Positions 12,001 to 37,270 of a stretch of 54,957 bases of DNA are shown piece after piece. The stretch spans positions 1 through 54,957 of the forward strand of contig CAZESS010000015.1 of NCBI GenBank assembly GCA_964514975.1, read 5' to 3'. Numbering within the stretch: the stretch's first letter is position 1; each line of letters opens with the position of its first letter. Source of the DNA: an uncultured Thermoplasmatales archaeon. Lineage in GTDB: Archaea; Thermoplasmatota; E2; UBA202; DSCA01. The position numbers were made by a program, and so were the translations under genes. Below the pieces are notes generated by a model. That model had not been told where the DNA came from. It searched no databases and was given only the letters and a program-made list of their open reading frames with translations.

Positions 12001-15000
12001 TGTGTCTGTCTCATAGTTCTTTAATGCAAGTGCACCGGGTTCAGCGCCGCCATCGTAGAAGTTGTTGTAGTGGAATTCTATGGTACTGACATCGCATCCT
12101 GTTAACGCACGGGCCGCATTTTCCTCTTCAGGCGAGAAGTTGTTGTAGTAGAAGGTGTTGTATTCAACGCTCACGTTGTGGGAGCCGACCGGTCCGTAGC
12201 TGGTGCCCCAGAGAGCCAGTCCGTAGGACGGGTAGTAGTATCCGGAGTAGGGCCAGTATGGCGAGGGGCCGATGTACTGGAAGGTGTTGTTGGTGATTGT
12301 TCCACCGCGCACGTTTATCTGGGCACCATGGTAGCTGCAGTTTTCGAAGAGGTTACAATGCACCTGAGCGTCAATCAGGTTGTAGACGTTGATACCTGTG
12401 CCGCAGTCATGGATATGGTTGCCCTTGATAACCGGGTTGTGGAACTCGAAATCATTCGGGTCGCCGCCAGCGAAGATACCGTAAGAGCCATCCGGGTTCT
12501 GGATATCGTTGTACGACACTTCAACATCGGTGTAGGTGATGAAATCTGTGAACCCACTGGTGAAACCAAGTTCCGCATTGACATATCCTGGGCCAGGGGC
12601 ACTTGGATTGGTTGCACTGGCGTTAATCCGATTGTGGGTGATGACAATGTCCTCGAAATAGCCGCTTCCCGTGGAATCAGTACCAGCATCCGGGTCATGA
12701 CCCACAGTGATGCCGGACCAGGCATACGTCGAATGGACATAGTTGTACGCCAGGACGACGTTGCTTCTCGTCGCATTCACCGGACCGCGTACATCGATGG
12801 CCGTGTAGAAGTCGATGACTTCAAAGCCGTTAAAGACAACATTGTCTGCCCTTATTACGACGGTGAAACCGGTTGTGGTCGGGCTGGGATCGGCGATGGT
12901 ACTCTCGCCACCGCTCCGGCCGCCCTCTACGGGCTCCACGTTGGCCTGTGCACCGTATAGAGAGAGTTCCTTGTCAATTGTGATTGCTTCGGTATATGTT
13001 CCTGCATACACATAGATGGTGTCGCCGTCGCTCGCTGCATCGATGGCATCCTGGATGCTGTCGAAGTGGGTGACGCCCCAGCCGGCCGTACTGGCATCGA
13101 AGTCATCGTCGACGTAGTAGGTACCAGGTGCAAGGCCATAGTTCCCGAGGTCGTCCACTGCATAATATTCAATGTAATGCTTGCATTCATCGGGTACCGT
13201 GAAGCTCACGTTGGAGTTCAACGGGCCGCTCTGCCATGCTCCCCAGCCACCGGTCATGTCCCATATACGCCAGAAAATCTGGTAGGAACCGACCGCACAG
13301 TCGCCAGCGTCAGTCGCATTCAGATAGATCGGCGTCGTCGTCGTGATACACCGGTTGCCGTCACAGACACCCGTCGGGTTGCCATATTCCTTGGTCACCA
13401 TCGGCGGTGTGTCGTCGACACGGTAGTGCTGATAGTAATGCATGGTTTCCGTGCCCAGGTCGTCAACCACATACCATTCAAGCATGTGCTCGCATTCCTC
13501 GTCAAAGGAAAACATGACGCTGCTGTTCATCGGCCCAGTAGTGAAATCGGGAATCGGGTCGCCGATCTTCCAATAGCGGTAATATATCTGGTAGGAGCCA
13601 ACCGAGCATTTGCTGAGGTTGTCGGTCGCGTTAATCGTTATCTCCGAGGTCGTCGTGACATACGTGGTATAATGGAAGGTGACGGACAACGAAAGCGATG
13701 AGCCAGAGGCACTGCCCGTGAACTCGCCTTCGAAGTACTGGCCATCATAGGTGCCGTCGCCGGTCGCATAAATTCGTCCATGCGTGGTGCTGGGGAATCC
13801 GGTGTGATCGGTGACATAGGTGCCGTTGAACCATCCGCCAGAGCCGTCAGACCAGGTGAAGGAGCCATAGCCGAAGCCCTGGGTCGCATAGGTCCCGTTG
13901 GTCGGTATGAACGAGTTGTGATACATGGTGATCGTACCCACCAGAGCGCCGGTCGTCGTGCCGCTCCATTCCTGTTCAGCCCAGAGGACACTTGTCAGCG
14001 GGTCGGGCAGCACGATGTCGGAGCCAAAGACCTGCGGTATCCAGAATCCCGCTGGCTCACTGGTATACCACTCGGTTTCACTTGACAAGCTGGCGCTCAC
14101 GGTCATCGTCTCGTTTTCCATGTACATGGGACCGTCGTGTTCCTTCCAGGTGACAGGTGGGGTGTTATCGACCATGACATGCTGTAGATGTGATGACTCG
14201 ATATGGCCGAGTTCATCGAAGCTGCGCACCCTGATGCGGTGCAGACAGCTATTGTTATCGCCGATGGATGAAAGGGTAAACGGCCCAGTATATGTATCCC
14301 ACGATGCAACGCCTTGCCAGCTCGAGCCATCCCACCGGTTGATGTAATACTCTATGTGGTCGACACCGGAGGCACACATGCCGGGGTTGTCCGTGGCGTT
14401 CAGATAAATCGTGGTGTCAGACGTGATATAATGGTCAAGGGTACCGGTGAAGTATGGTACATCCCAGTCCACGGGTTCGCCCTCATAATATGGCGTGCCG
14501 TATTCCTTGGTGGAGGTCGGCGGGCTATCGTCAACATAGAATGTCTCGTTGTCATACACGATGTTGCCGACGCAGTCATAGGCCCTGATGGACAGGTTGT
14601 GCATGCATTCATCCGGCATATAGATGGTGTCCGAAACCGTTATCTCCATCCAGCCGGAGTCATAGGTCGCATTCCAGATGCGGTATTCAACGGTCATGCT
14701 CGGGCAGCAGCCGGCGTTGGTCGCATCAATCGTAATCGGCGTGCCCGTGGTCACATAGAAATCTGGCATGCCGCCGCCGGGTATGTTCGGCGTGCCGACA
14801 GTCTTGTCTATCGTGGGAGCCGAATCGTCGACATAGAAGGTGATATTGTGGATGACGCCGTCGCCGTTGCCCAGCGAGTCCTCGGTGTAGTACTCAAGAT
14901 AATGTTTGCATTCCTCGTCAAATGTCAGGATGAGATCCTGGTAATATGTCCGCTGCCAGGTCGTCCAGGTACCGTTCCATATACGGTACCATATCGAGCT

Positions 15001-18000
15001 GTTGTCCGCCGCGCAGGGCGCACCAGGATCGGTCGCGTTGACATAGATGGGCGTGGCAGTGGTGACGCATGCATACGGCGTGTTGGTGGTATAGGTCGCT
15101 CCGTAGATGGTGCCGTCGTTGCCGTCCTCGACATCGGTGGCGGTGGAGCCGCTGCCCTCGTTGAAGTCCCACCATGAGACAAGGTTGGATGTCACAACGT
15201 TCTGATTGTAGTTGTTCTGGACATCGGCAGCAGAGAGCGCATCATCGTAAATGCGGACATCGTCAATCGCTCCCTCGAAGCCTAAATAGGGAGGTGGGCT
15301 GCCGTCAGCCATGCATCCAATGTACAGTTCGTTGCCGGTGGTAACAGCGCCAACTGTGCCGGCTGCGGCACTCGAATCAAGCGAGCCATCAATGTAGAGC
15401 TCAATGGTTCCGCCGTTTCTGGTGGCAACTATGTGGTGCCACTGTCCGTCGTTGATGGTAACACTCGACGTCAGGCTTGCACTGTTCGTACCGTCATCGA
15501 TGAGCCAGCGTATCCGGCCGCTGCTCTGCATCTCAAGGTCATAGGCAGGCTGCCAGTTGCCAATGGCGTTCTTGCGGACGATGCCGCCTCTGCTGTCCGA
15601 GGAGGTCTGAATCCATGCTTCGACGGTCCAATCAGATGAACCCATGTCGAGCGATGCGGCATGAGGGACTTCGACGTAATTGCTGCCATTGAAGTCAAGG
15701 GCGTAGTTGCCGCAGGAGGGCTCGCCTCGCTCGATGGCGCTCGACGGCGGGGTGTCGTCGACATAGAACGACCTGTTGTGTATGGTCGTCTCGGTGTTGT
15801 CCAGGTTGTCAACCGCATAGTATTCGATGTAATGTTTGCATTCCTCGTCAAAGGTGACATGGACAACGTCGCCGATGCCGCCAACCTGCCATGTGGTCCA
15901 TCCATCGGTCTGGTTCCAGAGCCGGTAATGGATACGCCATGAGCCCACGTTGCAGTCGCCATAGATATCCTGAGCGAACAGGGTAAGCTCGGTCGACGTC
16001 GTAATGTAGGTGGCTCCCTGGCTCTGCGGCCACTTGGGATCGCCGACCTGCAGGCCGGACTGCGGCGGGGTGTCATCGACCCGGTGGGTCTGGTTGGTCA
16101 CCGCTTCCATGTTGCCCGCGTTGTCGTCGCTGTAGAACTCGAGGTAATGGATGCATTCACCGCTCAGGGTGAAGTTGCCCGTGTACACCATGAAGTTGTC
16201 GTTGAGACCGACGCCGGTGCTCGGGGCGGGCGTCCATGCACCATTGTACCATACACGATAATAGGTTGCGTTGACGCCGGAGCCGCCGGACGGGTTGTCC
16301 ACGGCGGTGAAGTTGAACTCGGTGCTCGATGTGACGTAGTTAGCTCCACCTGTCGGACCCCATTTGGGCTCCCCAACCGTCTTGGTGGTCGTGGGCGCCT
16401 GGTTGTCGGAGCCGCCGGCCGCATGGGGCGAGAGATGCCAGACATGTGCCCAGACGTAGCCGATGTAGGTGCCATCGAAATAATCGGTGTTCACGCCGGT
16501 GACGTTGCAGAGCTGCCATTCCCCGGCGGTTCCATTCCAGAAGAAGACGCCCTGCAGGTCGCCTTCGTCGAGGCCGGAGGCAGTCAGGTCGGCCGCCGTA
16601 TAGTATATTGTAATATTGATAGGCCAGTCGACACCGCTGGTGTCGTTCATGCTCACGTCGACAAAGGTGCCGTCGAGCGCGTAGCCGCCCACGGCGTCGC
16701 CCTCGGGGTTTTCCTCGTATTTGAGCGTGGTGACGCTTGCGGGAGTCGAGGTGTTCACGGTGACCGTTGTCCCGGTCTCGTCCTTGCCGCCGGTCGTGGT
16801 CTCGGTGCCGGCGGGCACGTCCTCATAGTAGGAGTCCTCGACGCCGGATTCCTGGCTGTTGTTGTAATCGTCGTCAGGCCATGTGTCGTCCAGCCACGGC
16901 CGGAAGTCAACGTTATCGGACACGTTGTCGCCCTGACCGTACGGGGTGTCGGTCGCGTTGTGATACGGACCAGTTGAATGACCCCACCAGTTGTAGGTGG
17001 CGTTAACCACGGTTGCCGCAATATTCAAAACGCCATAGTGTCTGTTTCCGTAGATGTTGTTGTTATGTATCTCCGTCCCGGTGACCGGGTGGAGGTAGTC
17101 ATCTATGCCGCTGCCATTGCCGTTATTATAAATATTATTCTTCTCAACGGTTACATTGAAGGTGTTCAGCAGAACCCCCATCTTGCAGTCGGATACAGTA
17201 TTACCCGATATAAGATGGCCGCCAACTGTTCCGGTTGAGGTGACGCCATCCCCGGTAATCCGGATGCCATATCCGTTATCCAGCGACTCTGGCGGGTCGT
17301 AATACGTTCCCCATGTATAGAAATAATCAACCAGATCTGGGCTCCCGGTAACCGTATTATTGACAATGGTGGTGTTAACCGCATCGTATCCGGCATAGAT
17401 ATTATAATAACATCCGCTAATCGTGTTTTCTGCTATGACGTTATCCTGCTGGCCATCTATATTCGCATCGTCCCACATATTGATGCCATACCAAGCAACG
17501 TCTTTCCCGTCAATCGTATTGTTCACGATGCGGTTGTCGTTACAGGCCACCCCCTGAAGGTCGTATTGCCCGCCGGACAAATGGATACCATAATAGAAGT
17601 TTTCTATAACGTTGTCCATAATGGTGCAGTTACTCGAGCCAAATAAGAGAATCGAATTCATAAGATATGGATTACTAGCTCCGTCAGCATAGATATCTCC
17701 GCTCGTCGCATTCAAAATGACATCTTTGATAGTGAGCCCCTGTATAGTGATGTTGTCACAGCCGCGGATGTAAAACCCGGGATGAACATGCGTGGTCGGA
17801 GAACAAGGAGGTGCCTCGCCTGTTTGTGCCGCATTGATTATTGTACTCCCTGGCCCTTCCACTGATTGTATCGTAATATCTGTCTTATTATCCATATAGA
17901 CGTTTTCTAAGTATGTCCCGGGGTAGATATCGACCATCGTGCTCGTCACGTTGTCAATGGCATCCTGTATGCTAGCCCAGTATCCATCAGCACCATCTAT

Positions 18001-19932
18001 GTTGGCACAATGATAGTAGTCATAAGTGTTGCCAGAAAAGGTGTTGCCGAATATTTCTGCATATACCGTGTCATTCAGATGGACACCAATGTCACAATCT
18101 GAAATCGTGTTCCCCGTAATCGTCGCGTTTTTGCAGTCTCCATGCAGTTCAATTGCTTCAACCTGTTCAGTATGACCAAGCTGCGGAGAAATCGTGTTGC
18201 CTGAAATCATTACATTTTCAAACCCGGTGCCATTGCCATATCTCTTTAACATAATGCCAGCATTGGGATAGATGGGCTCATAGTTGAGATCACCAACGCC
18301 GGAGAGTACGTTGTTTTCTATGACAACATCGCTGTATACTGCAGCAGAGGGAACAAACTGTGGGCCTCCCCAAGTCTCCCAATTTTCGGCTTCCGTTTTG
18401 CTATTAAACATTACCCCAATGCCACCGTTACAGTTCATCGTATTGTTGTGTATCCATTGTGTAGCGGTTACATTGTTGGGTATGAGGAACGGTCCGCTGC
18501 TATTTTCCCAGTACTTAGGAAAATTAGTTATTTTAATAAGCCCGGGGGAACTCCAATTATAGACATCATCGAAATTCATCTCATTATGGCCGATTTCCAT
18601 TGCTCCACGGCATTCCTCTGTGCCAACAGCTTCCCACGGCGTGTTGAACACATTATTGCAGATTTTTATATCGGCATCGGTATGATCGAAATAGATGGTC
18701 CCCATTTCGAAGGTATTGTTCGTAAATGTCCATTGCCCCGGGTTATCGTCGGGCAGAGCCATTGCATCAAAGCCGATGACAGTTGTCCAAGCAGCGCTTT
18801 CAGATGCATCAATAGTGAATCCATCTATGGTAAGGTCACCGTAAGCTTCTATTTTTATCTTTGTACCGCCAGTTAAAGAGGACCCATTTATGATGGTCTG
18901 ATTTGCACCAGCCCCCTGTAACGTAAGCGGTTTATCTATGAGAAGTGACTGGTTGTAGGTGCCGTTGCCGACGCAGATTGTATGGCCAGGGCTTGCTTCA
19001 TCAATGGCGGTCTGTATTGACTGTCCGTCATAGATAATGGCGTCACATGGTCCCCCGGAGATATAGTCGTACCATCCACCCAGGTAAACATGTGTAATCC
19101 TGCCGGCGGTTACGTTGCCATCGATGTAGTTATTTACCATTTCACGTGTAAATGTGCCTCCGCTGAAAACCTGCAGCCAGTATCCAAAGTCAGAGCCGGC
19201 TGCATTGAACACATTGTTCGTCATCTGTATCGGGACCTGCTCCCCGGTTGCATAGAACTCCGTTCCGATAAACATTGTCCGTCTCTCGCTCCACAAGTTA
19301 AATGTGTTATCATTAAGAGATACACCAGTCGCCCCCTGCTGAGCATAGACACCGTACGTCAGACTATAGTTTACATTGGTAAGATCGAAGGTGGAATCGT
19401 TCAACGTCATCTCCTCGCCGTTTTGGACTGAAATGCCGACCAGGTTAACATATTGTGCTGAAAGAGTGTTTGTCTGCGTTATGTCCAGGTTGGTCGCTGT
19501 CAGTGTTCCGCTTCGCACACCGACCACAATCCATTCAGAGCCCGCTGTTGAAAGACCCGACCACGATGAGGTATCTGCGGTAGAGAGATCCTGGATGGTG
19601 AGATTATTGATGACGACGTCAGCGCCGCTTTCAATATCTATCCCTGCATCTATCACCGCGTTGTTGCCCTCGATGGTCAAATCCTTGTCGACGATAATCC
19701 TTGTCCCATCATGCGTATATCCACTGGCGATGTTGATGGTATCGTCAGCAGTGGCGTTGTCTATCGCCTGCTGGATGGTGGGGTAATCGCTGGGCACGTC
19801 AATCGTTGCCGCATCCGCCTGCACCGCTCCAAATGCGAGCAGGGCTACCGCCGCGATGGCTATCGCTGCGAAGATTACACTTCTCTTTCCTACAAAATTC
19901 ATGCTGTGTTGCTTATCGCTTTTGCGTCTCAT
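6082..19932 (-). CDS. Giant secreted/surface glycoprotein (4616 aa): parallel beta-helix (NosD/pectin-lyase-like) domains, ~25 Ig-like repeats, LamG domain
   Basis: Signal peptide; repeated IQxAIDxA..GDTIxV beta-helix caps; repeats starting VD(D/N/S)xPP with YAVDNLGNxE; LamG signature ALDFNGSNYVEVP..WTVEAWI..DGQWHHIVAT..FEGAIDDVRIYD. Confidence 0.9.
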   Translation of the reverse strand: MRRKSDKQHSMNFVGKRSVIFAAIAIAAVALLAFGAVQADAATIDVPSDYPTIQQAIDNATADDTINIASGYTHDGTRIIVDKDLTIEGNNAVIDAGIDIESGADVVINNLTIQDLSTADTSSWSGLSTAGSEWIVVGVRSGTLTATNLDITQTNTLSAQYVNLVGISVQNGEEMTLNDSTFDLTNVNYSLTYGVYAQQGATGVSLNDNTFNLWSERRTMFIGTEFYATGEQVPIQMTNNVFNAAGSDFGYWLQVFSGGTFTREMVNNYIDGNVTAGRITHVYLGGWYDYISGGPCDAIIYDGQSIQTAIDEASPGHTICVGNGTYNQSLLIDKPLTLQGAGANQTIINGSSLTGGTKIKIEAYGDLTIDGFTIDASESAAWTTVIGFDAMALPDDNPGQWTFTNNTFEMGTIYFDHTDADIKICNNVFNTPWEAVGTEECRGAMEIGHNEMNFDDVYNWSSPGLIKITNFPKYWENSSGPFLIPNNVTATQWIHNNTMNCNGGIGVMFNSKTEAENWETWGGPQFVPSAAVYSDVVIENNVLSGVGDLNYEPIYPNAGIMLKRYGNGTGFENVMISGNTISPQLGHTEQVEAIELHGDCKNATITGNTISDCDIGVHLNDTVYAEIFGNTFSGNTYDYYHCANIDGADGYWASIQDAIDNVTSTMVDIYPGTYLENVYMDNKTDITIQSVEGPGSTIINAAQTGEAPPCSPTTHVHPGFYIRGCDNITIQGLTIKDVILNATSGDIYADGASNPYLMNSILLFGSSNCTIMDNVIENFYYGIHLSGGQYDLQGVACNDNRIVNNTIDGKDVAWYGINMWDDANIDGQQDNVIAENTISGCYYNIYAGYDAVNTTIVNNTVTGSPDLVDYFYTWGTYYDPPESLDNGYGIRITGDGVTSTGTVGGHLISGNTVSDCKMGVLLNTFNVTVEKNNIYNNGNGSGIDDYLHPVTGTEIHNNNIYGNRHYGVLNIAATVVNATYNWWGHSTGPYHNATDTPYGQGDNVSDNVDFRPWLDDTWPDDDYNNSQESGVEDSYYEDVPAGTETTTGGKDETGTTVTVNTSTPASVTTLKYEENPEGDAVGGYALDGTFVDVSMNDTSGVDWPINITIYYTAADLTASGLDEGDLQGVFFWNGTAGEWQLCNVTGVNTDYFDGTYIGYVWAHVWHLSPHAAGGSDNQAPTTTKTVGEPKWGPTGGANYVTSSTEFNFTAVDNPSGGSGVNATYYRVWYNGAWTPAPSTGVGLNDNFMVYTGNFTLSGECIHYLEFYSDDNAGNMEAVTNQTHRVDDTPPQSGLQVGDPKWPQSQGATYITTSTELTLFAQDIYGDCNVGSWRIHYRLWNQTDGWTTWQVGGIGDVVHVTFDEECKHYIEYYAVDNLDNTETTIHNRSFYVDDTPPSSAIERGEPSCGNYALDFNGSNYVEVPHAASLDMGSSDWTVEAWIQTSSDSRGGIVRKNAIGNWQPAYDLEMQSSGRIRWLIDDGTNSASLTSSVTINDGQWHHIVATRNGGTIELYIDGSLDSSAAAGTVGAVTTGNELYIGCMADGSPPPYLGFEGAIDDVRIYDDALSAADVQNNYNQNVVTSNLVSWWDFNEGSGSTATDVEDGNDGTIYGATYTTNTPYACVTTATPIYVNATDPGAPCAADNSSIWYRIWNGTWTTWQRTYYQDLILTFDEECKHYLEYYTEDSLGNGDGVIHNITFYVDDSAPTIDKTVGTPNIPGGGMPDFYVTTGTPITIDATNAGCCPSMTVEYRIWNATYDSGWMEITVSDTIYMPDECMHNLSIRAYDCVGNIVYDNETFYVDDSPPTSTKEYGTPYYEGEPVDWDVPYFTGTLDHYITSDTTIYLNATDNPGMCASGVDHIEYYINRWDGSSWQGVASWDTYTGPFTLSSIGDNNSCLHRIRVRSFDELGHIESSHLQHVMVDNTPPVTWKEHDGPMYMENETMTVSASLSSETEWYTSEPAGFWIPQVFGSDIVLPDPLTSVLWAEQEWSGTTTGALVGTITMYHNSFIPTNGTYATQGFGYGSFTWSDGSGGWFNGTYVTDHTGFPSTTHGRIYATGDGTYDGQYFEGEFTGSASGSSLSLSVTFHYTTYVTTTSEITINATDNLSKCSVGSYQIYYRYWKIGDPIPDFTTGPMNSSVMFSFDEECEHMLEWYVVDDLGTETMHYYQHYRVDDTPPMVTKEYGNPTGVCDGNRCITTTTPIYLNATDAGDCAVGSYQIFWRIWDMTGGWGAWQSGPLNSNVSFTVPDECKHYIEYYAVDDLGNYGLAPGTYYVDDDFDASTAGWGVTHFDSIQDAIDAASDGDTIYVYAGTYTEAITIDKELSLYGAQANVEPVEGGRSGGESTIADPSPTTTGFTVVIRADNVVFNGFEVIDFYTAIDVRGPVNATRSNVVLAYNYVHSTYAWSGITVGHDPDAGTDSTGSGYFEDIVITHNRINASATNPSAPGPGYVNAELGFTSGFTDFITYTDVEVSYNDIQNPDGSYGIFAGGDPNDFEFHNPVIKGNHIHDCGTGINVYNLIDAQVHCNLFENCSYHGAQINVRGGTITNNTFQYIGPSPYWPYSGYYYPSYGLALWGTSYGPVGSHNVSVEYNTFYYNNFSPEEENAARALTGCDVSTIEFHYNNFYDGGAEPGALALKNYETDTMDAENNWWDTTVESEIQDRLNGSIDYDPWESSAVSIGPCPTPPTPPAMDLPSPYYVHNQTFYVDDVGPSIDKTVGDPNITVTADEEYYVTTLTPIYIDATDPGCCPGMTVEISVNGGAWQEITVPYVFNFNDECTHTLDIRAYDCLGRTVYDNETFHVDSTPPLVNKTVVGGGYDDGTGNYYVNHDATVYLNVTELPDCSEGNWTLHYRIWWDGGYLVNTTTDTNFSYGFSEDCIHYFEYWVEDELGNRWPTTGWHNETFYVDSVPPTSSLEIGDPKYPHDTSTATHITTDTWLLMYGSDTGCPAVGMWEMHYRIWRDNTTLVQSGDGTLMQPFNITIIEECNHTIEYWATDYAGNEETPHNFRQLYVDDSAPDEDLNVGSPSFQSGSWFYVTLDTPIWLNATDMPASDCAVGNFTIHYRTQFNGTWTPWATSGSNVSIDFTENCTHRLQYWIEDELGNRFPSSGYRTWGFHVGGGLPDATLQFGSPYYMDYITKYTPIYINATGDMAHTNYQIYYNVNNGSWHTGAWNSNVTFTFDDIGVMDNCTHTIYYNITNNMGEWEEYNYTVNVDNIKPTVNKDVGMPQYGENVTSDTPFWLNVSDAGSCSSGIAELNYRIYYNGSWHTYTTYGNTTFTFGDFVWNGECEHTIEAYAVDNLGHESTLIYQTHYVDDTPPTTEKEYGSPFYVGSPVYWNVPYFTGTLDHYITSETPIYLNATDNTVGCASGVDHIEYYINRWNGASWETVTAWTPYTGAFNLSSLGDDNNCLHRFSIRSFDNLGNMEDSWRQHVMVDNTPPDVTKEVGEPKMMVGLDEYCIETGTPIWINATDNGTLDCVVGSVHLHYRIWYNGSWTYYNESVPSGTISEEIYLPEECTHYLEFYVEDNLGNRWPASGWHNETFHVDDYPPVLYKTVGDPNVTVTPGDEYYVTTGTPITIDAETGCCDMTVMYNNGSGWVDITGSLPYVHYFDSECDHWLNVTITDAMGRTVYDNETFHVDDTPPTTTLEYGTPYYTSGGDEWITTGTTVYLNATDHPACASGVAWINYSTDGGATWDTVYANETFTIPTECSHTIQWYAVDELGNTETTHSTDVNVDSTPPSTTIEYGGMHYTDGTDTWISTGTTIYLNATDGPACASGVATIYYTYNGTWQTASGDVSFTIPDNCTHTLEWYAVDNLGHTETTHTQTVNVDDAAPSTTLEYGTPYYTDGTEEWITPDTTIYLNATDHPACASGVAEIWYNYGAGWNTVVGSQATFDIPDECTHSIEWYAVDNLGHEETHHFTDVNVDDTAPTATLELGTPYYTDGTTEWITSDTTIYINTTEYPACASGIAEIVYSYDGGTSWYSVAATQTTFSIPVECNHTLIWYAVDNLGNEGTHHTRDVKVDNTPPAIENTVGEPKVVVFPGDKYYITSSTVIDFTASDQGCSGGVGWKNITYRTWYNGSWSNWTTVTPLRYTITLSGEGVHYLEIIASDELGNTGYDNVTFIVDDTPPDINKTVGIPSDPGCSYNDWVVETGTDIILSATDASPALAIQYSLDGGAWTSVANPYVFNFPTTGIHTLDIRATDGLGHVSYDNETFWVASDMSDSTPPTSWHTPTWIENSNPTPNTKITIKAEDDDNPWQIHYRINGGAEKTGDVNQYVNLHFTPGQITLEYWAVDLACNEETPHHVIEFRVAMGDITDLIFFDGPHELVDGKHEITTETKIGFDFDKAQGMGITEIWYRVNKGTQITGEYSRYYTPFTLDEGTYTIYYYGIHQTGQKTPTASTTVYISGNEAPQTSITLNPSSPDGNDGWYTGAVTAMLSATDPDGDATTTYYRIDDGDWNEYTGPFTIREHDQHTISYYSVDTEDNEETPHSKTVKIDGDAPEITLHKPGGNLYIFNREIMPLPRGRTIIIGQISIEASVTDPATSGVDSATLYLDGTAKGMFQEEISYVLDETLFGEHTITIEAYDVAGNRAVKEITATILNIRIFGNAGP

Positions 19933-21668: not shown

Positions 21669-22435
21669 GGGACATCGTTGCCGCGGTTGCCATCGTATGC
21701 ATCATTCTCGCAGCATTATGGGCATATACCGGGCAGTTCCCGGACACGCCGATGGTGGTCGTGACATCAGGCTCCATGATGCACGACGACGCCTCCTATG
21801 GAAAAATCGGCACCATCGACCCCGGCGACCTCGTGCTCGTCAAAAAAATCGACGGGCGAGACGACGTCACCCCGCGCGGCGCATCCTTCGCCCCGGAGAC
21901 AGGCCATCGCAGCTACGGCGACTACGGCGACGTCGTCATCTACTACCCGATGGGCAACGAGGGGCGCACCCCGGTCATCCACCGCGCCATCTGCTGGGTC
22001 GAGGTGCACAGCGACGGCACGTACACGGTCAGCGCCTACAACATCACCACCGCGCAGAGCGTCACCATCCCCGAGCTCCAGCTCTCCGGCTACCGGCCCA
22101 CCAACAGCGGCTTCATCACCAAGGGCGACAACAACCGGCTGCCCGACCAGTACCAGAGCGGCGGCATCTGCGCCGAGCCCGTCAAACCCGGATGGATCAT
22201 CGGCAAGGCACGCGGCGAGCTCCCCTGGTTCGGCCTCATAAAGCTCATGATCTACGGCAACGAAGGGGTCTACGGCGAACCCGGCTGGGTGAAAATTGGC
22301 AATGCCGTGGCGCCCAAGGACATCTGGGTCTGCCTCGGCCTGTCATTGCTGGGCATCGCCGCCGTCCCCATCTCGCTCGACGCCTACGAATACTACCGGC
22401 GCCGGCAGAACGAAAAAAAATACGGTGAATTTTAG
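21641..22435 (+). CDS. sec11: Archaeal signal peptidase I (S26, Sec11-like)
   Basis: N-terminal TM helix, catalytic Ser in VVTSGSM, GDLV, catalytic His in VIHRA, FITKGDNN, and a C-terminal TM helix. Confidence 0.85.
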   Translation: MRQRILLTIRDIVAAVAIVCIILAALWAYTGQFPDTPMVVVTSGSMMHDDASYGKIGTIDPGDLVLVKKIDGRDDVTPRGASFAPETGHRSYGDYGDVVIYYPMGNEGRTPVIHRAICWVEVHSDGTYTVSAYNITTAQSVTIPELQLSGYRPTNSGFITKGDNNRLPDQYQSGGICAEPVKPGWIIGKARGELPWFGLIKLMIYGNEGVYGEPGWVKIGNAVAPKDIWVCLGLSLLGIAAVPISLDAYEYYRRRQNEKKYGEF

Positions 22436-23679
22436 AGCAGGCGGGACTGTATCTTCACCTTCAACCCCTGCAGATCCGACACGTCGGGCACGATGTCGTC
22501 ATCCGACAGGATATCAGCGATTTTTTCCATCGAGGTCGCCACCTGTATCTCCTTCGTCCGGCCGTAGCGTCCCTTCGAAATCACGCGGGCCGTGATGATG
22601 CCGAGCATGTCCAGCTCAGAGATAAGGTCGGCGATGCGGCGCTGCGTCAGCACGTCCATCCCCGCCCGCTTGCACAGTTGCTTGTAGACGTTGTACACGT
22701 CGCCCGTGTTGGGCGCGCTCTCGAACACCTGGTTGCCGACGACCGCCGCCGTCAGCACGAGCTTGGACTGCGCGGGCAATGTCAGGATGACCTCCTTCAC
22801 CCGGTCGATCTCGATCTTGTTGACCGCCATCCGGGCATGGCGCTCATGGATGTTCGCCTCGCCGGCGCGGTCCGCGATCTCGGCGGAGACGCGCAGCAGG
22901 TCCAGCGCGCGGCGTGCATCGCCATGTTCCTGCGCGGCCAGCGCCGAGCACAGGGCGGTGACGGAGCCGTCGAGCGCGTTTGGACGGAACGCCTTGGACG
23001 AGCGGGCGCTCAGGATGTTGTCCAGCTGGTCTGCCGTGTATGGCGGAAATATCATGTTTTCCTCGCCGAGCGATGACTTGACGCGCGGGTCGAGAAACTC
23101 GGTGAACTTGAGGTCGTTGGAGATGCCGATGATGGAGGTCTTCGCTTCCTTGAGGTCGTTGTTCATCCGGGAGAGGTTGTAGAGCGCCTCGTCGCCCTTG
23201 AGCTTGTCGACCTCGTCGAGCACGATGACGACGACGCCCTTGCTGTTTTCGATGCGGTGGACGAGCTGCGCGTAAACCTCGTCGGTCGGCCATCCCGTGA
23301 AGGGCACGCGCTCTGACCAGTCCTGGATGAAATGGTTGGAGATGTTCTGGAGCACCCTGTACTGCGTGTCGACGATTTCGCAGTTGATGTAGATGAAATG
23401 GGTGGGCCGCTGCAGTTCCTGCCCTTTTTCGTAGAGATGGGAGCCGACGTATTTGGTGACGGCTGTTTTGCCGGTCCCGGTTTTGCCGTACATGAACACG
23501 TTTGACGGCGTTTCCCCTTTGAGCGCCGGTACCAGTATGGAGGCGAGCTCCTCTATCTGGTGCTCGCGGTGTGGCAAAACGTCAGGCACGTATGAAGGAC
23601 GTAAAACTTCCTTGTTCTTAAATATGTCGCTGGTTCTCAGTAGCGAATTGAAGATGTCATCGGACATTTCTTCCCCCAT
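22432..23679 (-). CDS. cdc6: Orc1/Cdc6 replication initiator
   Basis: LPHREHQI, Walker A GKTGTGKT, Walker B IVLDEVD, GDARRALDLLR, and winged-helix ISELDMLGII..GRYGRT. Confidence 0.97.
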   Translation of the reverse strand: MGEEMSDDIFNSLLRTSDIFKNKEVLRPSYVPDVLPHREHQIEELASILVPALKGETPSNVFMYGKTGTGKTAVTKYVGSHLYEKGQELQRPTHFIYINCEIVDTQYRVLQNISNHFIQDWSERVPFTGWPTDEVYAQLVHRIENSKGVVVIVLDEVDKLKGDEALYNLSRMNNDLKEAKTSIIGISNDLKFTEFLDPRVKSSLGEENMIFPPYTADQLDNILSARSSKAFRPNALDGSVTALCSALAAQEHGDARRALDLLRVSAEIADRAGEANIHERHARMAVNKIEIDRVKEVILTLPAQSKLVLTAAVVGNQVFESAPNTGDVYNVYKQLCKRAGMDVLTQRRIADLISELDMLGIITARVISKGRYGRTKEIQVATSMEKIADILSDDDIVPDVSDLQGLKVKIQSRLL

Positions 23680-23732
23680 TCATCCGAATACGAGGAGGCT
23701 AAATAAACCTTGTGCGTGATGTGTTAGCATGT

Positions 23733-23754
23733 TCGTCAGAGGCCAATCTGACGA
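23733..23754. promoter_or_regulatory. Perfect 8-bp inverted repeat in the cdc6/E1 divergent intergenic region, a candidate regulator site
   Basis: TCGTCAGA-ggccaa-TCTGACGA lies between TATA-like elements at ~23702 (for cdc6) and ~23816 (for E1). Confidence 0.35.
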
Positions 23755-23841
23755 CGGCAACAATTAAAAACGGCGCGATGCAGCCATGGACGAACACCGC
23801 GGGCATGACAAATCCTTTAACGGCCATATCCATGTGCCGGT

Positions 23842-24636
23842 ATGGGCGAGCCAGCACTGCGCCCCGGCGACGCCGACCGTGACAGATACGACCGGTCGAA
23901 ACGCTTCGGCTGGTTTGACCGCGATGCGGTACGCGACGCGGCGGTGCTGGTCGCGGGAGCCGGGGCGCTCGGCAACGAAACATGCAAGGACCTCATCCTG
24001 TCCGGGTTCAGAAACATTTCGCTCGTCGACATGGACCACGTCGTCCATTCCAACCGCAACCGCTGCCTGTTTTTCTCCGATGCGGATGCCCGCCGACGGC
24101 GGGACAAGGCACGGGTCATCGCGGATAAAGCTGCAACGCTTGCGGCCGACGTAACCATCACGCCGCATGTGGAACGGATACAGGACCTGCCGGGGGATTT
24201 CATCGCCCGCCACGACGTGGTGCTCGGCTGCCTGGACAACATCGAGGCGAGGCTGCACGTCAACGCCCACGCCTGCCGTCACAAGACACCCTACATCGAC
24301 GGCGGCACCCGCGGCCTCGTCGGCAAGGTGCAGGTCGTCGTCCCGCCCGACACGAGCTGCCTGGAATGCGGGATGAACGCGACGCACCACCAGGTGAAGG
24401 ACGTCCGCTACAGCTGCACCGGCAACGATGTCACCGTCTACGAGCCGAAGATGGCCTCGGATGTCAACACCACGAGCATCATCTCCGCGGTGCAGGTGCA
24501 GGAGGCGCTCAAGCTGGCGAACGGGCGCCGTGAACGGCTCATCGAAAACATGTTTTACTACGACGGCAACCGCAACGTCGCCGACGTCGTCGAGGTGCCC
24601 ATCGCTCCGGCATGCCCACACCATGATGAGCGATAG
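23842..24636 (+). CDS. Ubiquitin-activating E1-like enzyme (ThiF/MoeB/E1 superfamily, Uba2/Uba3-like motifs)
   Basis: RYDR, GAGALGNE, DMDHVVHSNRNR, CLDNIEAR, IDGGTRGLVG, Zn motif CLEC, putative catalytic Cys in YSCT, and C-terminal CPHH. Confidence 0.9.
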   Translation: MGEPALRPGDADRDRYDRSKRFGWFDRDAVRDAAVLVAGAGALGNETCKDLILSGFRNISLVDMDHVVHSNRNRCLFFSDADARRRRDKARVIADKAATLAADVTITPHVERIQDLPGDFIARHDVVLGCLDNIEARLHVNAHACRHKTPYIDGGTRGLVGKVQVVVPPDTSCLECGMNATHHQVKDVRYSCTGNDVTVYEPKMASDVNTTSIISAVQVQEALKLANGRRERLIENMFYYDGNRNVADVVEVPIAPACPHHDER

Positions 24637-24665
24637 ATATTTATGTGCCTCGATTAATTTATACC

Positions 24666-24902
24666 ATGAAGATAACGGTTAAAGACGCGGAGACCGGCAG
24701 CACGATAGACATGGACGTCGACGAGGACAACACCATCGGCGAGGTCGTCGAAAGCTCCGCCACCTACTGGAACAAGGACCCCGGCGCCTACGTCATCCGC
24801 TTCGGCAAACAGCAGCTCGGCGGCCGGACCAGCATCGGCGGCACCACGATACAAGAAGGCGACGTCGTCGAGCTCATCCCCGACCCCACAGGCGGCCGGT
24901 GA
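24666..24902 (+). CDS. Ubiquitin-like modifier, 78 aa, ending GG-R
   Basis: MKITVKDAETGSTIDMDVDEDNTIGEV aligns with ubiquitin [26 protein letters not shown] (12 identities). Ends PTGGR and lies between E1 and E2. Start moved to ATG 24666. Confidence 0.88.
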   Translation: MKITVKDAETGSTIDMDVDEDNTIGEVVESSATYWNKDPGAYVIRFGKQQLGGRTSIGGTTIQEGDVVELIPDPTGGR

Positions 24903-24908
24903 TACCCC

Positions 24909-25463
24909 GTGCCGCTTCCATCCGACGTCCTGGCGAAACGGGTGAACAACGAGATACGGGAATGCAAACGGGCGTTCGAGCACCATTTCACCGTCACGGA
25001 GCCCGGCCTGCCATCGTTTCCCGTCACCCTACAGGTAAAACTGGTGAACACGCCCGGCCCGGTCATGGACAACGGCCGGGTGCACAGCCGCTACACCCAC
25101 CTGCTCACGGTCACCGTCACCGAAAACTATCCCTACCAGACGCCCATCGCACGGTGGCGCAGTCCCATCTTCCATCCAAACATCATGCCACCCAAAGACG
25201 GCGGCTACATCTGCACCAAGCTGCTCGACGAATGGACCTTCCGGTCTAACCTGCCGGCTTTCATCCGGGGCATTGAATCCCTGCTGCTCAACCCCAACCC
25301 CGACGACCCCTACGACAACGACACCTGCACCCGCGCCGCCGCCTACTTCAACAGCACGTCCTACACGCCGCCGGTGACAGCGCAGCCACAAAAAAGCCAC
25401 ACCAAACCCGTCATCCTGAGCGACAATGATAAAAATCACCGGGGAAACACCCAAGACGCCTAG
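24909..25463 (+). CDS. Ubiquitin-conjugating enzyme E2 (UBC fold)
   Basis: KRVNNE helix 1, NYPYQTP, FHPNI..GYIC (HPN motif plus catalytic Cys), LLDEW and SLLLNPNPDDP. Confidence 0.93.
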   Translation: MPLPSDVLAKRVNNEIRECKRAFEHHFTVTEPGLPSFPVTLQVKLVNTPGPVMDNGRVHSRYTHLLTVTVTENYPYQTPIARWRSPIFHPNIMPPKDGGYICTKLLDEWTFRSNLPAFIRGIESLLLNPNPDDPYDNDTCTRAAAYFNSTSYTPPVTAQPQKSHTKPVILSDNDKNHRGNTQDA

Positions 25464-26079
25464 ACGCCATCCCCCGCCATCATCCGCGGACATCGTCTTC
25501 AGCTACACCCCCGGCATGGATACAGCCGGCGTCCGGGCATACATCGCAGACCGGCTCCATCGGGCGGGCATCGACCGCATCAACGGCGCCAGAGAGCCCC
25601 ATGAAACAAAGGTCACCGCACGCCAGACCAGCGAACGCACCCTTTACATCAGGCAGAAGGTCATCGACGACCTGATCGTCCACTGCGCGGAAATGGCCGC
25701 CGACCGTCTCGAAGCATTGGGCTTCCTAGTCGGCGACCTCGGCCGATGGAACAACACCCCCTTTTCAATGATATATGACCTGGTGACCGGGCAGCTCGAC
25801 GCGACCGCGACATCGGTGCGCTTCCGCCAGGACGCCTTCGAAGACATGTTCGACGCGCTCGACGAGCTGAGCTACGACTACGTGCTCATCGGCTGGTATC
25901 ATTCCCATCCCGGCTACACCAGCTTCATGTCCTACGTCGACCTCGACACCCAGCGGCGGATGTTCAACCAGCCGTTCCACGTCGCGCTGGTCGCCGACCC
26001 CATCAGCCTGGAGCTCAAGGCCTTCCGGCTGCTGGACGACGAATGCGTCGAAATACCCTACGCCGTCGTCAAAAAATAG
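25426..26079 (+). CDS. JAMM/MPN+ (Rpn11/CSN5-like) metallo-isopeptidase
   Basis: EALGFLVG followed by GWYHSHPGYTSFMSYVD (E..HxH-x7-S-x2-D), then ALVADP. Confidence 0.93.
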   Translation: MIKITGETPKTPRRHPPPSSADIVFSYTPGMDTAGVRAYIADRLHRAGIDRINGAREPHETKVTARQTSERTLYIRQKVIDDLIVHCAEMAADRLEALGFLVGDLGRWNNTPFSMIYDLVTGQLDATATSVRFRQDAFEDMFDALDELSYDYVLIGWYHSHPGYTSFMSYVDLDTQRRMFNQPFHVALVADPISLELKAFRLLDDECVEIPYAVVKK

Positions 26080-26886
26080 CTACACCCGGCGGTCTATCTC
26101 CCGCATGACCTCCACCGCCTGCTCCTTGAACGAATCCTTAATCGACTGGTAATACGTATCGGCGATTTTGCCCTTGTCGCGCTCGATTTCCAGCTGCTTG
26201 AGCAGCCCGGTGAGCAGCTTTTTCCGCATCCGCAGCGCCTCCACCGGCTCCTTCTCCAGATAACGGTCACGGCGCTGCCGCCCCATAACAAGCATGAGCG
26301 CGCCGACGGCCAGGCCACCACCAGCCAGCCCGAGGGCGAGATACAGCAGCACGTTACCGCCGTCATCCTCCCCGGGGGCGAACAGGACGGTCACCGTGTC
26401 ATCCTTCCCGAGCGTGGCGTTGCCCGCGTAGACGCCGGCCGTATATGACAATGGCACGCTGCTCCGCACCCACATCCGGCTGTCCACAATCACCGATACC
26501 GGGGCGTCATACAGCATACGGTGGACAATGTCGCCGTCACGGGGAAACCGCGCCACGACAGAAAGATTTTCCCCGGCAGCCACGCTCAGGCCGTTCGCCC
26601 CGAGGTCGACGGTGGCGACGCTATCGTTCCACGACGCATCGAGCGCGTCGCCCTGGCAGGTGAGCACTGCATCGGCGGGCGCCCAGAGCTCAACGGAGCC
26701 ATTGTACCTGCCCGTCTCGCCCGCATACACCATGGTGAGCGTCACCTGGTCGTCGGTGACATGCAGCGTCTCCCCCGCCACCGTCACACTGCTGTGCGGC
26801 GTCGAGCTATCCGACAGGTCACCGTCGGCTATCGCCACCGGCATGAGCAGCGTCAGCGCCAGCATCGCAACAACAATGCGCTTCAT
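26080..26886 (-). CDS. Single-pass membrane protein: signal peptide, extracellular beta domain, TM helix, cytoplasmic helical tail
   Basis: Start moved to MKRIVVAMLALTLLMPVAIA (26895 is an alternative). TM segment VLLYLALGLAGGGLAVGALMLV; tail LKQLEIERDKGKIADTYY. Confidence 0.7.
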   Translation of the reverse strand: MKRIVVAMLALTLLMPVAIADGDLSDSSTPHSSVTVAGETLHVTDDQVTLTMVYAGETGRYNGSVELWAPADAVLTCQGDALDASWNDSVATVDLGANGLSVAAGENLSVVARFPRDGDIVHRMLYDAPVSVIVDSRMWVRSSVPLSYTAGVYAGNATLGKDDTVTVLFAPGEDDGGNVLLYLALGLAGGGLAVGALMLVMGRQRRDRYLEKEPVEALRMRKKLLTGLLKQLEIERDKGKIADTYYQSIKDSFKEQAVEVMREIDRRV

Positions 26887-26933
26887 GAAAATCATCGCTC
26901 TCGCAATAGCTGTCGCTACATAACTTTTTTGGC

Positions 26934-27137
26934 TCATCCCTCGTGCCGCTGCCGGTTGACCTCCGCCACGGCCCGGGCTGCCTCGCGTGCATCCCTCGAG
27001 CGGTAGAGCACCCGGCGCGTCCGGAGCCTGAAACGGGTGCCGCAGCGCTGGCAGGATACCGTTTTGTGGGAGAGGTTGACGGCGCGAGCCATCTCGCAGT
27101 CGGGGCAGACGACGACGCCGTACTCGGTGGGCTGCAT
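26934..27137 (-). CDS. Small zinc-ribbon protein (DUF1922/DUF5817-like)
   Basis: MQPTEYGVVVCPDC..VSCQRCG, two CxxC pairs, 67 aa. Confidence 0.7.
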   Translation of the reverse strand: MQPTEYGVVVCPDCEMARAVNLSHKTVSCQRCGTRFRLRTRRVLYRSRDAREAARAVAEVNRQRHEG

Positions 27138-27178
27138 ACAATACAGCAATAAAGGAGAACTATATGTAGGATGTGGCG

Positions 27179-27793
27179 ATGAAAAAAAAGGAGCTTGAGA
27201 TGCTGCTGCAGGACATCCCGCCGCCGGCGGAGCCGAAGGCATCGCTCGAGCAGTATCAGACGCCGGCGGCCATCGCAGCCGACATGCTCTTCAATGCAGC
27301 AGGTGACATCCAGGGCAACCACATCGCAGACCTGGGATGCGGCACCGGCATCTTCGCCATCGGCGCCGCCATCATTGGTGCCTCACATGCCACCGCCATC
27401 GACATCGACCCATCGATAGTCGCCGTCGCCCGCATGCAGGCCAAGCGATTTGGCGTCAACATAACCTTCAAGGTCGGCGACGTCGCCGAACTGGACATGC
27501 GATGCGACACGGCCATCATGAACCCGCCATTCGGCGCGCAGCACGGCAACCGCCGGGCCGACCGGCTGTTCCTCAAAAAAGCGCTTGAGAACGCATCCGT
27601 GGTACATTCGCTCCATCTCACCAAAACAACGCGGTTCATCCGTCAGCTCGTGACAGCGCTCGAGGGCACCATCACCCACACCACGGCATACCAGTTTTCC
27701 ATCACACCCCGGTTTGTGTTTCACACCAAACGATGCGTCAACGTCGACGTCACCGCGTTCAGAATAACAAAACAGCGTACACAAACGCGATGA
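27179..27793 (+). CDS. METTL5-family N6-adenine RNA methyltransferase
   Basis: Motifs LEQYQTPA, DLGCGTG, MNPPFG and FHTKR. Confidence 0.9.
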   Translation: MKKKELEMLLQDIPPPAEPKASLEQYQTPAAIAADMLFNAAGDIQGNHIADLGCGTGIFAIGAAIIGASHATAIDIDPSIVAVARMQAKRFGVNITFKVGDVAELDMRCDTAIMNPPFGAQHGNRRADRLFLKKALENASVVHSLHLTKTTRFIRQLVTALEGTITHTTAYQFSITPRFVFHTKRCVNVDVTAFRITKQRTQTR

Positions 27794-33215: not shown

Positions 33216-33715
33216 TCATCCCTGCCCGTTCCATGTGCCCGGCGCGGTGACATAGACAAACACGCCCATACCCCTGGTAATGGTAAACCCGGGCGGCGGC
33301 GTCACCCCGACCGTATAGGACTCAAACGTGCCGCTCGACGCGTTCCAGTAGGCAGCGATGCTGCAGTTCGGCACCGACGGGGCGAGCGAGCTCGCACTCG
33401 TTGCAGCGGCATCAAACCACCCGACCGTGTTCCAGCCCGTATAAAGGCTGACGGACACGGACGAAATCGGAAGCCCGGTCACCGAAAACGTGCCCGAGGT
33501 GTTCACATACACAAAGTAGCCGACGCCGTCCTCGATAGCGAAGCCATCACCAGGGGTGATACCCACGACAAATGACTGGAACATGCCAGCCGAGGCGTTC
33601 CAGTAGGCCACGATTTCGCAGCCCGTAATTGCCTGGCCGAGGGAACTCGCCTTGTAGTCGTTGTCGACCGGCACCGTTACCAGGTTCCAGCCCACAACGA
33701 GGTCGAGGGCAACGG
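33216..33715 (-). repeat. Shared C-terminal domain, copy C
   Basis: Near-identical at DNA level to copies A and B. Confidence 0.9.
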
Positions 33716-36692: not shown

Positions 36693-36769
36693 GGTGTAAC
36701 ATCTCCCCGGCATTTTTAACATTTTCTAACGCATAATGAAACCTGCATGATGCATGGATAGAAAAAGGG

Positions 36770-37270
36770 CTATCCTCCACCATGCCACACGCCAGGCTTC
36801 GTCACATAGACAAAGATGCCCATGCCCCGCTCGATGCGGAAGGCAGCAGAAGGTGGACTCACCCCGACCAGATAGGATGCAAACGTGCTGCTCGACGCGT
36901 TCCAGTAGGCCACGATGGTGCAGTTGCCGACGGCGCCGCCCAGGCTGCTGGCATTTGTTGCCGTTGTATTGTACCAGCCGAGGGTGTTCCAGCCCGTGTA
37001 GAGGTCAACTGAGACATTCGATATCGGGTTGTCTACCACGCTGAAAATGCCATAGCAGTACATATAAATGAAGTAGCCCACACCATCATCGATGGCGAAA
37101 CCATCTCCGGGCGTCACACCAACCACATATGACTCGAAGGCGCCAGCAGAGGCGTTCCATCGGGAGACGATGCTGCAGCCCGAAAGGTTTTGGCCAAGGG
37201 AAGCAGCCGTATATGTGTTTCCACCGGGGTTAGTAATGAGGTTCCAGCCATGGGATACATAAGCAGTGTA
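36770..37270 (-). repeat. Shared C-terminal domain, copy D (more diverged)
   Basis: GWNLITNP..WNASAGAFESYVVGVTPGDGFAIDDGVGYF..GWNTLGWY..GMGIFVYVT. Confidence 0.85.

Follow-up and report, generated by a model that had tools for sequence, protein, structure and literature searches.

An E1-Ubl-E2-JAMM operon in Thermoplasmatota and its candidate membrane-anchored RING partner

Introduction

Haloferax-type sampylation (SAMP/UbaA/JAMM1) does without an E2; it employs a MoeB-sized E1, a JAMM protease and a beta-grasp modifier with a terminal GG. Among the archaeal ubiquitylation systems that depend on an E2 and a RING, only that of Caldiarchaeum has been reconstituted; those of the Asgard archaea have been studied. 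Such ubiquitylation is usually framed as lying on the line to eukaryotes. The Caldiarchaeum system, as described in parts of two reports (PMC5654768, PMC6043591), comprises ubiquitin, E1, E2, the RING protein srfp and Rpn11. In the present study, we analyzed a 54,957-nucleotide stretch of DNA (hereafter, the window; contig CAZESS010000015.1 of GenBank assembly GCA_964514975.1) from an uncultured Thermoplasmatales archaeon, in which four adjoining genes encode an E1, a ubiquitin-like protein (Ubl), a UBC-fold E2 and an Rpn11-like JAMM protease. Judged from sequence and structure comparisons, the four genes very probably form an E2-dependent conjugation system. Taken together with a RING-tailed surface protein encoded on another contig of the same genome (C26), they likely represent a chromosomal, vertically inherited, eukaryote-type Ubl conjugation and deconjugation module, for which the C26 RING tail would be the leading candidate E3.

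Excerpts of several papers touch on related archaeal components. Fuchs et al. 2018 (PMC6043591) described a 'JAMM-3' group that is nearer to Rpn11/CSN5 than JAMM1/JAMM2 and is found in Ub/E1/E2 operons without an E3. In the E2 tree of Lu et al. (preprint 2023, 10.1101/2023.07.25.550441; later Cell Rep 2024), 'Ca. Thermoplasmatota E2' sequences form a clade that diverges deeply among the archaeal E2s, separately from Asgard/TACK. An MPN protein of Methanomassiliicoccus luminyensis was considered a possible Rpn11 orthologue by Fort et al. 2015. Grau-Bove et al. 2015 reported ubiquitin toolkits in Aigarchaeota and Crenarchaeota as well as in a single euryarchaeote of marine group II, for which they list RINGs and UCH, not this operon. 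A figure of Hennell James et al. may already depict this cluster type. The excerpts of Koonin 2015 and Makarova et al. 2024 made no mention of a Thermoplasmatota system.

Results

Gene organization and host

The window is one entire contig; the assembly to which it belongs amounts to 1.96 Mb, with a completeness of 98.9%. An earlier note on this DNA, made from the sequence alone, had reported four consecutive co-oriented genes at positions 23842-26079. The open reading frame (ORF) list gives exactly these genes, all on the + strand and tightly packed, as follows:

23842-24636, + strand: E1-like Ubl-activating enzyme (ThiF-type), 264 aa
24637-24665, + strand: E1-Ubl spacer, AT-rich, 29 nt
24666-24902, + strand: Ubl precursor, 78 aa from ATG (85 aa if the GTG at 24645 is used)
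24909-25463, + strand: UBC-fold E2, 184 aa, GTG start
25426-26079, + strand: Rpn11-like JAMM/MPN+ metalloprotease, 217 aa

The E1-Ubl spacer measures 29 nt and the Ubl-E2 spacer 6 nt, and the E2 and JAMM genes overlap by 38 nt. The AT-rich spacer may hold an internal archaeal promoter that serves the Ubl gene. Rfam and tRNA scans of the window gave no matches, and none of the four proteins matched an NCBIfam model at or over its cut-off. A chance origin of the four-gene cluster is excluded by the Pfam E-values and the conserved synteny described below.

The earlier note had also proposed a Thermoplasmatota host. This was borne out by the named homologues of the E2, which were metagenome-assembled genomes labelled Thermoplasmatota, Thermoplasmata or Thermoplasmatales, together with two 'Euryarchaeota archaeon RBG' bins. 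One E2 homologue, protein P0006 with 62% identity, carried the source label 'Nitrospiraceae bacterium'; because all other homologue names were archaeal, this sequence is probably a mis-binned archaeal contig. When protein sequences were searched with a profile of the E2 alignment, the best 120 of 171 matches belonged to one family, with no outgroup. A Bifidobacterium stretch matched by the single-E2 contig scan (40% identity over 48 residues) was dismissed as irrelevant.

Sequence and structure analysis of the four proteins

The E1 matched Pfam ThiF with 155.9 bits (E 1.2e-45), over the cut-off. The match spans residues 26-252 of 264, which leaves no room for a ubiquitin-fold domain. The protein is MoeB-sized, and the Pfam analysis detected neither a C-terminal ubiquitin-fold domain nor any extra domain past the ThiF core. 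In the phmmer search of the PDB, the top matches were active adenylation domains, those of the eukaryotic UBA1, UBA7, UBA3 and SAE2 (E 4.5e-22 to about 1e-18), and MoeB (3e-16) and ThiF (3e-15) ranked below these eukaryotic E1s. The motifs GAGALG, CLEC and YSCTG are present in the protein. Across 22 orthologues, G39-E46 (the nucleotide loop), C173, C176, C192, C258 and H261 were invariant. C173/C176 and C258/H261 constitute a putative Zn site, and C192 in YSCTG is the candidate catalytic cysteine.

The Ubl ends in PDPTGG followed by one additional Arg. P72-D-P74 and G76-G77 (PDPxGG) were invariant in 33 orthologues, in which the GG is trailed by 0-10 variable residues. A fixed motif with variable trailing residues is the pattern to be expected if the Ubl is a precursor trimmed at GG. 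On the sequence, trypsin would leave 23 residues of the mature Ubl on a target, not a di-Gly remnant, and standard K-GG proteomics would not be applicable. In the sequence search against solved structures, it was only faintly ubiquitin-like. The AlphaFold2 model, for which the 33 orthologues were used as input, had a predicted local distance difference test (pLDDT) value of 91.6 and a beta-grasp fold. The best PDB folds found by Foldseek were ubiquitin (TM 0.82-0.86, 26-28% identity), SUMO1 and Hub1, and Caldiarchaeum ubiquitin (6fnn_C) was matched with a TMq of 0.88.

The E2 matched Pfam UQ_con (PF00179) with 50.8 bits (E 1.7e-13; cut-off 27), and its nearest solved structures were UBE2A/Rad6 and Ubc13 (about 1e-9). 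H89, P90, N91 and C102 were invariant across 39 orthologues, and Cys102 is the predicted catalytic cysteine. The C-terminal tail of the protein is of low complexity.

The JAMM protein matched Pfam JAB with 39.7 bits (E 4.7e-10; cut-off 22.5). Its top PDB matches were yeast Rpn11 (5.5e-13), the Caldiarchaeum Rpn11 homologue 6fjv (1.8e-11), CSN5 and AMSH. Glu-96 (E..G motif), GWYHSH, the Ser and the Asp were retained in at least 90% of 30 orthologues, and residues 1 to about 70 form a poorly conserved extension. In one other genome (G043, locus L033), the operon JAMM ORF (8505-9431) ends in a hydrophobic, transmembrane-like C-terminal stretch.

The earlier note had described intact catalytic motifs and four enzymatic roles of eukaryote-like character. 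Both descriptions held. The E1 motifs, the GG-R end of the Ubl, the HPN...C of the E2 and the GWYHSHP..S..D of the JAMM protein are intact and kept in relatives, and the nearest solved structures are eukaryotic E1 adenylation domains, Rad6/Ubc13-type E2s and Rpn11/CsRpn11/CSN5, and not MoeB, JAMM1 or proteins of the SAMP system.

We then considered a purely sulfur-carrier or SAMP-type function, in which the Ubl, thiocarboxylated by the E1, would serve the thiolation of cofactors or tRNA, alongside accessory or inactive E2 and JAMM proteins. The MoeB-like size of the E1 and its matches to the MoeB and ThiF NCBIfam models, all sub-threshold, speak for this function, as does a weak match of the Ubl to Pfam ThiS (E 0.077). 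However, the Ubl model folds like ubiquitin, SUMO and CsUb, and neither MoaD nor ThiS figures in the Foldseek matches listed to rank 50. The E1 scored only 67.6 bits against the SAMP-activating E1 model NF047750, whose cut-off is 450, and the JAMM protein 24.9 bits against the desampylase model NF041370 (cut-off 130). Across the phylum, neither the Cys and HPN of the E2 nor the metal site of the JAMM protein varies. Moreover, the genome already has a better ThiF (C5:89584-90270, 232.6 bits) directly beside a ThiS (C5:89324-89554, 59.3 bits), and it carries a second JAMM of the Prok-JAB type at C8:52115-52420. The ThiF and ThiS pair and the second JAMM would supply ordinary SAMP or sulfur-carrier chemistry; according to the portions of the Caldiarchaeum reports, the ubiquitin system of that archaeon likewise coexists with a separate SAMP-type set. 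A sulfur-carrier function alone is thus extremely improbable.

Distribution of the operon

The sample consisted of 41 relatives including the own genome (G000), 401 genomes taken phylum-wide and 14 control genomes. The E2 protein was present in 30 of the 41 relatives (8/12 in family f1 and 21/25 in family f2). PF00179 was detected in 95 of the 401 phylum genomes, in 94 of them over the cut-off, and in none of the 14 controls. We fetched 49 E2-centred loci, two short ones of which are duplicates of longer loci. Colinear E1-Ubl-E2-JAMM was found in 19 of the 49 (families f1, f4, f10, f37, f44, f49, f50 and f51), and one further locus (f32) has E1-Ubl-E2 followed by the contig end. Ubl-E2-JAMM without an adjoining E1 occurred in eight distinct loci. 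Where the E1 is non-adjacent (family f2, G006), an orthologue 49-61% identical was located on another contig in 5/5 genomes tested. McrA was detected in families f10 and f44 (3/3 genomes tested), and not in the own genome nor in one other. Because the f10 and f44 genomes carry McrA, the same operon is present in methanogenic lineages, several of which have closed genomes.

These counts bear on the novelty that the earlier note had suspected. Full-text literature searches turned up no experiments on the system of this phylum, and in this respect the suspicion stood; nor did they return any text that ties a membrane-anchored RING to the system. The system is not rare, given the number of genomes with the E2; the protein is already annotated as 'ubiquitin-conjugating enzyme E2', and three papers have touched on the system.

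A second, more divergent cluster type with the order E2-JAMM-E1 or E2-E1 was observed in L023 (G159), L035 (G047), L037/L038 (G056) and L053 (G177). The E2s of these clusters resemble the window E2 much more weakly (E 1e-4 to 1e-12), and the clusters possibly represent a distinct system.

A conserved RING protein as candidate E3

The earlier note had seen no E3 and had proposed a possibly E3-independent system. Profile searches likewise found no credible RING in the window. The proposal nevertheless fared badly, since a conserved membrane-anchored RING is encoded elsewhere in the genome, co-occurs with the E2 and stands in the operon in other families. In the window, a RINGv match at 42359-42427, at the N-terminus of a 1917-aa protein, was rejected; it scored 14.9-16.9 bits (cut-off 21.6) and covered 23 of 47 profile positions. 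HECT and U-box searches gave no match in the genome, and the HECT search was silent in the controls too, so this negative shows little. The genome search with zf-RING_2 yielded the tail of a C26 protein as its sole match, under the cut-off (23.7 bits, and 21 bits in the Pfam analysis of the protein). A six-frame scan for RING-like motifs gave four matches in the genome, of which the C26 tail alone was credible and the others were Cys-rich short frames. The protein is as follows:

G000:C26:90-3158: RING-tailed surface protein, about 995 aa, with a signal-like N-terminus, Cohesin, four PKD, CARDB, a transmembrane helix, a basic linker and a C4HC3 RING

The RING ligands C76, C79, C92, C94, H99, C102, C109 and C112 were invariant in 28 orthologous tails, of which 24 show a hydrophobic stretch resembling a transmembrane helix immediately before the RING. 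The structure model of the 49-residue domain reached a pLDDT of 87.6. The PDB matches listed for it were nearly all eukaryotic RING E3 domains, including RNF125, RNF165, Arkadia, RNF4, gp78, RNF12 and RNF13 (TMq 0.6-0.7; E 0.02-0.17, the domain being so small). Prokaryotic RING families, including Prok-RING_1 (PF14446), were reportedly defined by Burroughs, Iyer and Aravind in 2011. PF14446 gave the tail its best Pfam score. It matched 36 of the 41 relatives at E<=0.01, with 19 over the cut-off; at E<=1e-4, 40 of the 401 phylum genomes had a match. With a profile built from the 49-residue domain itself, the number was 111 of the 401.

Over these 401 genomes, E2 and RING occurred together in 84, E2 only in 11, RING only in 27 and neither in 279. 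In family f10, the 29 E2-positive genomes are the same 29 that are RING-positive, out of 48, and in family f44 both proteins were found in the same six genomes. Gene order provided independent support for the link between the RING and the system. Immediately upstream of the other genes, and in their orientation, a RING gene was seen in L033 (RING>Ubl>E2>JAMM), L041 (RING>E2>JAMM), L042 (RING>E1>Ubl>E2), L044 (RING>E1>Ubl>E2>JAMM) and L058 (RING>E1, overlapping). In L040 and L049, the RING is 1.1-4.6 kb away. Overall, 6 of the 49 E2-centred loci, plus L058, showed the association, and the same adjacency was found by coordinates in G054, G072, G102, G119 and G188.

The architecture of the RING proteins differs among lineages. 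In L033 (G043), a giant RING protein of 3155 aa is encoded directly upstream of the Ubl. In family f30 (L041 of G086, and G072, G102 and G119), the E2 and JAMM genes come straight after a giant RING gene; no Ubl was found between RING and E2 in these four genomes by query search, and it may sit elsewhere or be too divergent to detect. The RING protein of the methanogen lineages is small (about 170-260 aa), with an N-terminal membrane anchor in 4/5 ORFs and several zinc ribbons in 5/5. Five genomes of 3.1-5.5 Mb (G110, G116, G174, G188 and G198) had 14-17 RING-domain and 2-7 UBC E2 matches each, and some of their ORFs carry two or three tandem RING domains. The RING ends proteins of about 1450-1620 aa in genomes without a UBC E2, namely in families f34 (G090, G160, G182 and G381) and f40 (G112 and G249) and in 15/24 genomes of f23. 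The highest Prok-RING_1 scores in the phylum (52-60 bits) were those of f34.

The complex of E2 residues 1-152 and two Zn with the RING tail was also predicted. The score was 0.53, which is weak, and the best of three controls scored 0.00. The runs agreed in at least 96% of contacts, with a partner pLDDT of at least 74. In the calibration of the score, 58 of 80 solved complexes and 2 of 110 mismatched pairs attained the mark; the passes with a score of 0.60 or below comprised only 7 of the 80 solved complexes and both of the passing mismatches. The pass may reflect likeness, because E2-RING complexes are among the solved structures.

Several observations weigh against the assignment of these proteins to one RING-dependent module. 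The E1 has no ubiquitin-fold domain for E2 recruitment, and transfer from E1 to E2 is assumed. The Ubl stayed below the cut-off against Pfam ubiquitin (15.9 bits, E 0.011; cut-off 25.4), and the C26 tail did so against Prok-RING_1 (26.8-27.0 bits; cut-off 29.1). The co-occurrence counts run across kin and are not independent events, so independence is overstated. Among the 111 RING-positive genomes, 27 were without E2, and five RING-positive, E2-negative genomes that are 95-99% complete were also without matches to family-specific E2 and Ubl profiles. Because such genomes exist, the RING family does not need this system and can serve another purpose. Eleven of the 95 E2-positive genomes gave no RING match. 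The complex score falls in a band in which, unless there is a good prior, wrong predictions outnumber right ones. Finally, the RING gene is unlinked in the own genome: its neighbors on C26 are a PKD protein, Kae1/TsaD and one unassigned ORF, all unrelated, and in G003, of the same genus, the orthologous RING gene lies among GTPase, Thi4 and radical-SAM genes.

The unlinked position and the genomes with only one of the two proteins would also fit an E3-independent minimal system, in which the E1 and the E2 would suffice for conjugation, either through auto-modification of the E2 or through direct transfer, and the RING proteins would be unrelated, substrates or docking sites. Such a system is further favored by the window, where no RING, HECT or U-box gene was found, by the genome-wide HECT and U-box negatives, and by Caldiarchaeum, whose E1 and E2 auto-ubiquitylate without an E3 according to a part of PMC5654768. 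The same part of that report states, however, that the reconstitution needed the RING protein for substrate modification. In addition, the HECT negative carries little weight, 84 of the 95 E2-positive genomes have a member of the RING family, with identical sets in f10, and in at least five loci from several families a RING gene adjoins the system in the same orientation. We therefore consider E3-independent conjugation unlikely, and the balance tips slightly toward the C26 RING tail as the E3 of the module.

Neighboring genes and other features of the window

The genes flanking the operon in the window include the following:

22432-23679, - strand: Orc1/Cdc6 (Pfam Cdc6_C, Cdc6_lid and AAA); context only, not a component of the system
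26934-27242, - strand: DUF5817 zinc-ribbon protein, upstream of a single-pass membrane protein, both within 26080-27242

Orc1/Cdc6 is divergent from the E1 gene across a 162-nt spacer (23680-23841), and the gene of the single-pass membrane protein (within 26080-27242, - strand) is convergent with the JAMM gene. Both layouts are kept in the family; the order Orc1, E1-Ubl-E2-JAMM and membrane protein was conserved in loci L003-L009 of about 3.5 kb, as far as they reach. In families f2, f10, f44, f50 and f51, ribosomal L18e-L13-S9-RpoN genes adjoin the operon. These ribosomal neighbors were spotted by all-against-all clustering of stop-to-stop ORFs, which merged overlapping frames. Because the neighbors are housekeeping genes, we interpret the operon as a vertically inherited cellular system and not as a mobile defence island.

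This context also bears on a role in anti-virus defence, on the pattern of the bacterial Bil (BilABCD) or CBASS Cap2/Cap3 systems, in which the Ubl would be attached to phage or defence proteins. PADLOC models gave some matches in that direction, all of them weak: the E1 matched the Cap2-type 'E1-E2' models with at best 37.3 bits and BilD with 19.6 bits, and the JAMM protein matched JAB with 22.9 bits and BilC with 21.6 bits. However, the Ubl and the E2 matched no PADLOC model, and the E2 is a canonical UQ_con protein, not of the Bil/Cap2 type. The synteny beside Orc1/Cdc6 or ribosomal genes is stable across families, inheritance looks vertical, and the window ORF list holds no CD-NTase or effector gene nearby. 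A defence module is accordingly very improbable.

The start listed for the membrane protein is a TTG, which overlaps the DUF5817 ORF; the protein therefore probably begins at the Met near 26937. The surroundings of the Orc1/Cdc6-E1 spacer may hold a replication origin. Three very large predicted surface proteins without a RING tail are encoded in the window, all on the - strand: one of 4616 aa with laminin-G and NosD/beta-helix (6082-19932), one of 1168 aa with FG-GAP and PKD (33216-36722), and one of 1917 aa with beta-helix and PKD (36770-42523). Two low-GC stretches (0.47-0.49 vs about 0.60) lie inside two of these three genes, at 18-20 kb and 38-40 kb.

Discussion

Family membership and conserved residues suggest how the module might operate. 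The Rpn11-like JAMM would remove the lone Arg that follows GG in the 78-aa precursor. The MoeB-sized E1 would then adenylate the exposed Gly and load the Ubl onto Cys192, from which the Ubl would be handed to Cys102 of the UBC E2. The E2 would move it onto target lysines, and the same JAMM would take it off again. If the E3 is the C4HC3 RING tail just past the single transmembrane helix, conjugation would take place at the inner membrane face.

A broader reading is that Thermoplasmatota own a complete, ancient five-part ubiquitin system of E1, Ubl, E2, Rpn11-like deubiquitylase and membrane-tethered RING E3, whose E3 is the cytoplasmic tail of large to giant surface proteins or, in methanogens, a small membrane-anchored RING/zinc-ribbon protein. 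We hold this reading only tentatively, at somewhat less than even chances. If it is true, cell-surface events or the fate of surface proteins would be coupled to ubiquitylation at the inner membrane face, and RING-dependent ubiquitylation would exist outside the Asgard/TACK lineage. It would also be testable in growable organisms, provided that the McrA-bearing lineages include cultured strains.

An operon of E1, Ubl, E2 and a deubiquitylase in about a quarter of the sampled Thermoplasmatota, apparently inherited vertically, broadens the current picture of archaeal ubiquitylation. The system offers a simpler E1 without the ubiquitin-fold domain. If the RING link is true, it also offers a membrane-anchored E3 whose partners gene order may suggest; if the link is wrong, the system remains a natural test case for E3-independent conjugation. 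Some of the methanogen lineages that carry the operon have closed genomes, and experimental work on them could prove far simpler than on Caldiarchaeum or the Asgard archaea. The phylum-wide conservation, the occurrence in methanogens and the RING association make this system a worthwhile target.

Compared with Haloferax-type sampylation, the present system has an E2, its E1 and JAMM proteins score far under the SAMP-E1 and desampylase cut-offs, and ThiF and ThiS are encoded separately. The candidate E3 can be likened, in manner of working only, to eukaryotic transmembrane RING E3s such as the PA-TM-RING protein RNF13 (rank 24 among the fold matches), which combine a single-pass cytoplasmic RING with a large ectodomain. 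The MARCH-type RING-CH ligases are further eukaryotic transmembrane RING E3s. In contrast to these eukaryotic proteins, the ectodomains here are arrays of PKD, CARDB and Cohesin, and homology is claimed for the RING fold alone.

According to excerpts of the Asgard studies (10.1101/2023.07.25.550441, PMC13037920), the Asgard systems share eukaryote-like Ub, E1, E2 and RING components. They are tied there to ESCRT and UEV-Vps23, and no such tie was seen here. The 'JAMM-3' description fits the window JAMM and an operon without a RING; this comparison is by description, as the excerpt names no organisms.

The system most closely resembles that of Caldiarchaeum subterraneum, with which it shares a Ubl precursor with residues past the GG, a ThiF-type E1, a UBC E2 with HPN and Cys, and an adjoining Rpn11-like JAMM. 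The precursor extension is one residue here and nine in Caldiarchaeum. The E1 here has only 264 aa, the ThiF core alone, the order E1-Ubl-E2-JAMM runs on one strand, and the host phylum is euryarchaeal-grade. The Caldiarchaeum cluster contains a small soluble RING protein (srfp), whereas the operon in the window contains none and the candidate is a C4HC3 RING that is membrane-anchored and unlinked. Collectively, the system is of the same kind as Caldiarchaeum/Asgard ubiquitylation, in a variant with a minimal E1 and without an in-operon RING in this genome, and the Thermoplasmatota variant probably has a membrane-tethered RING partner.

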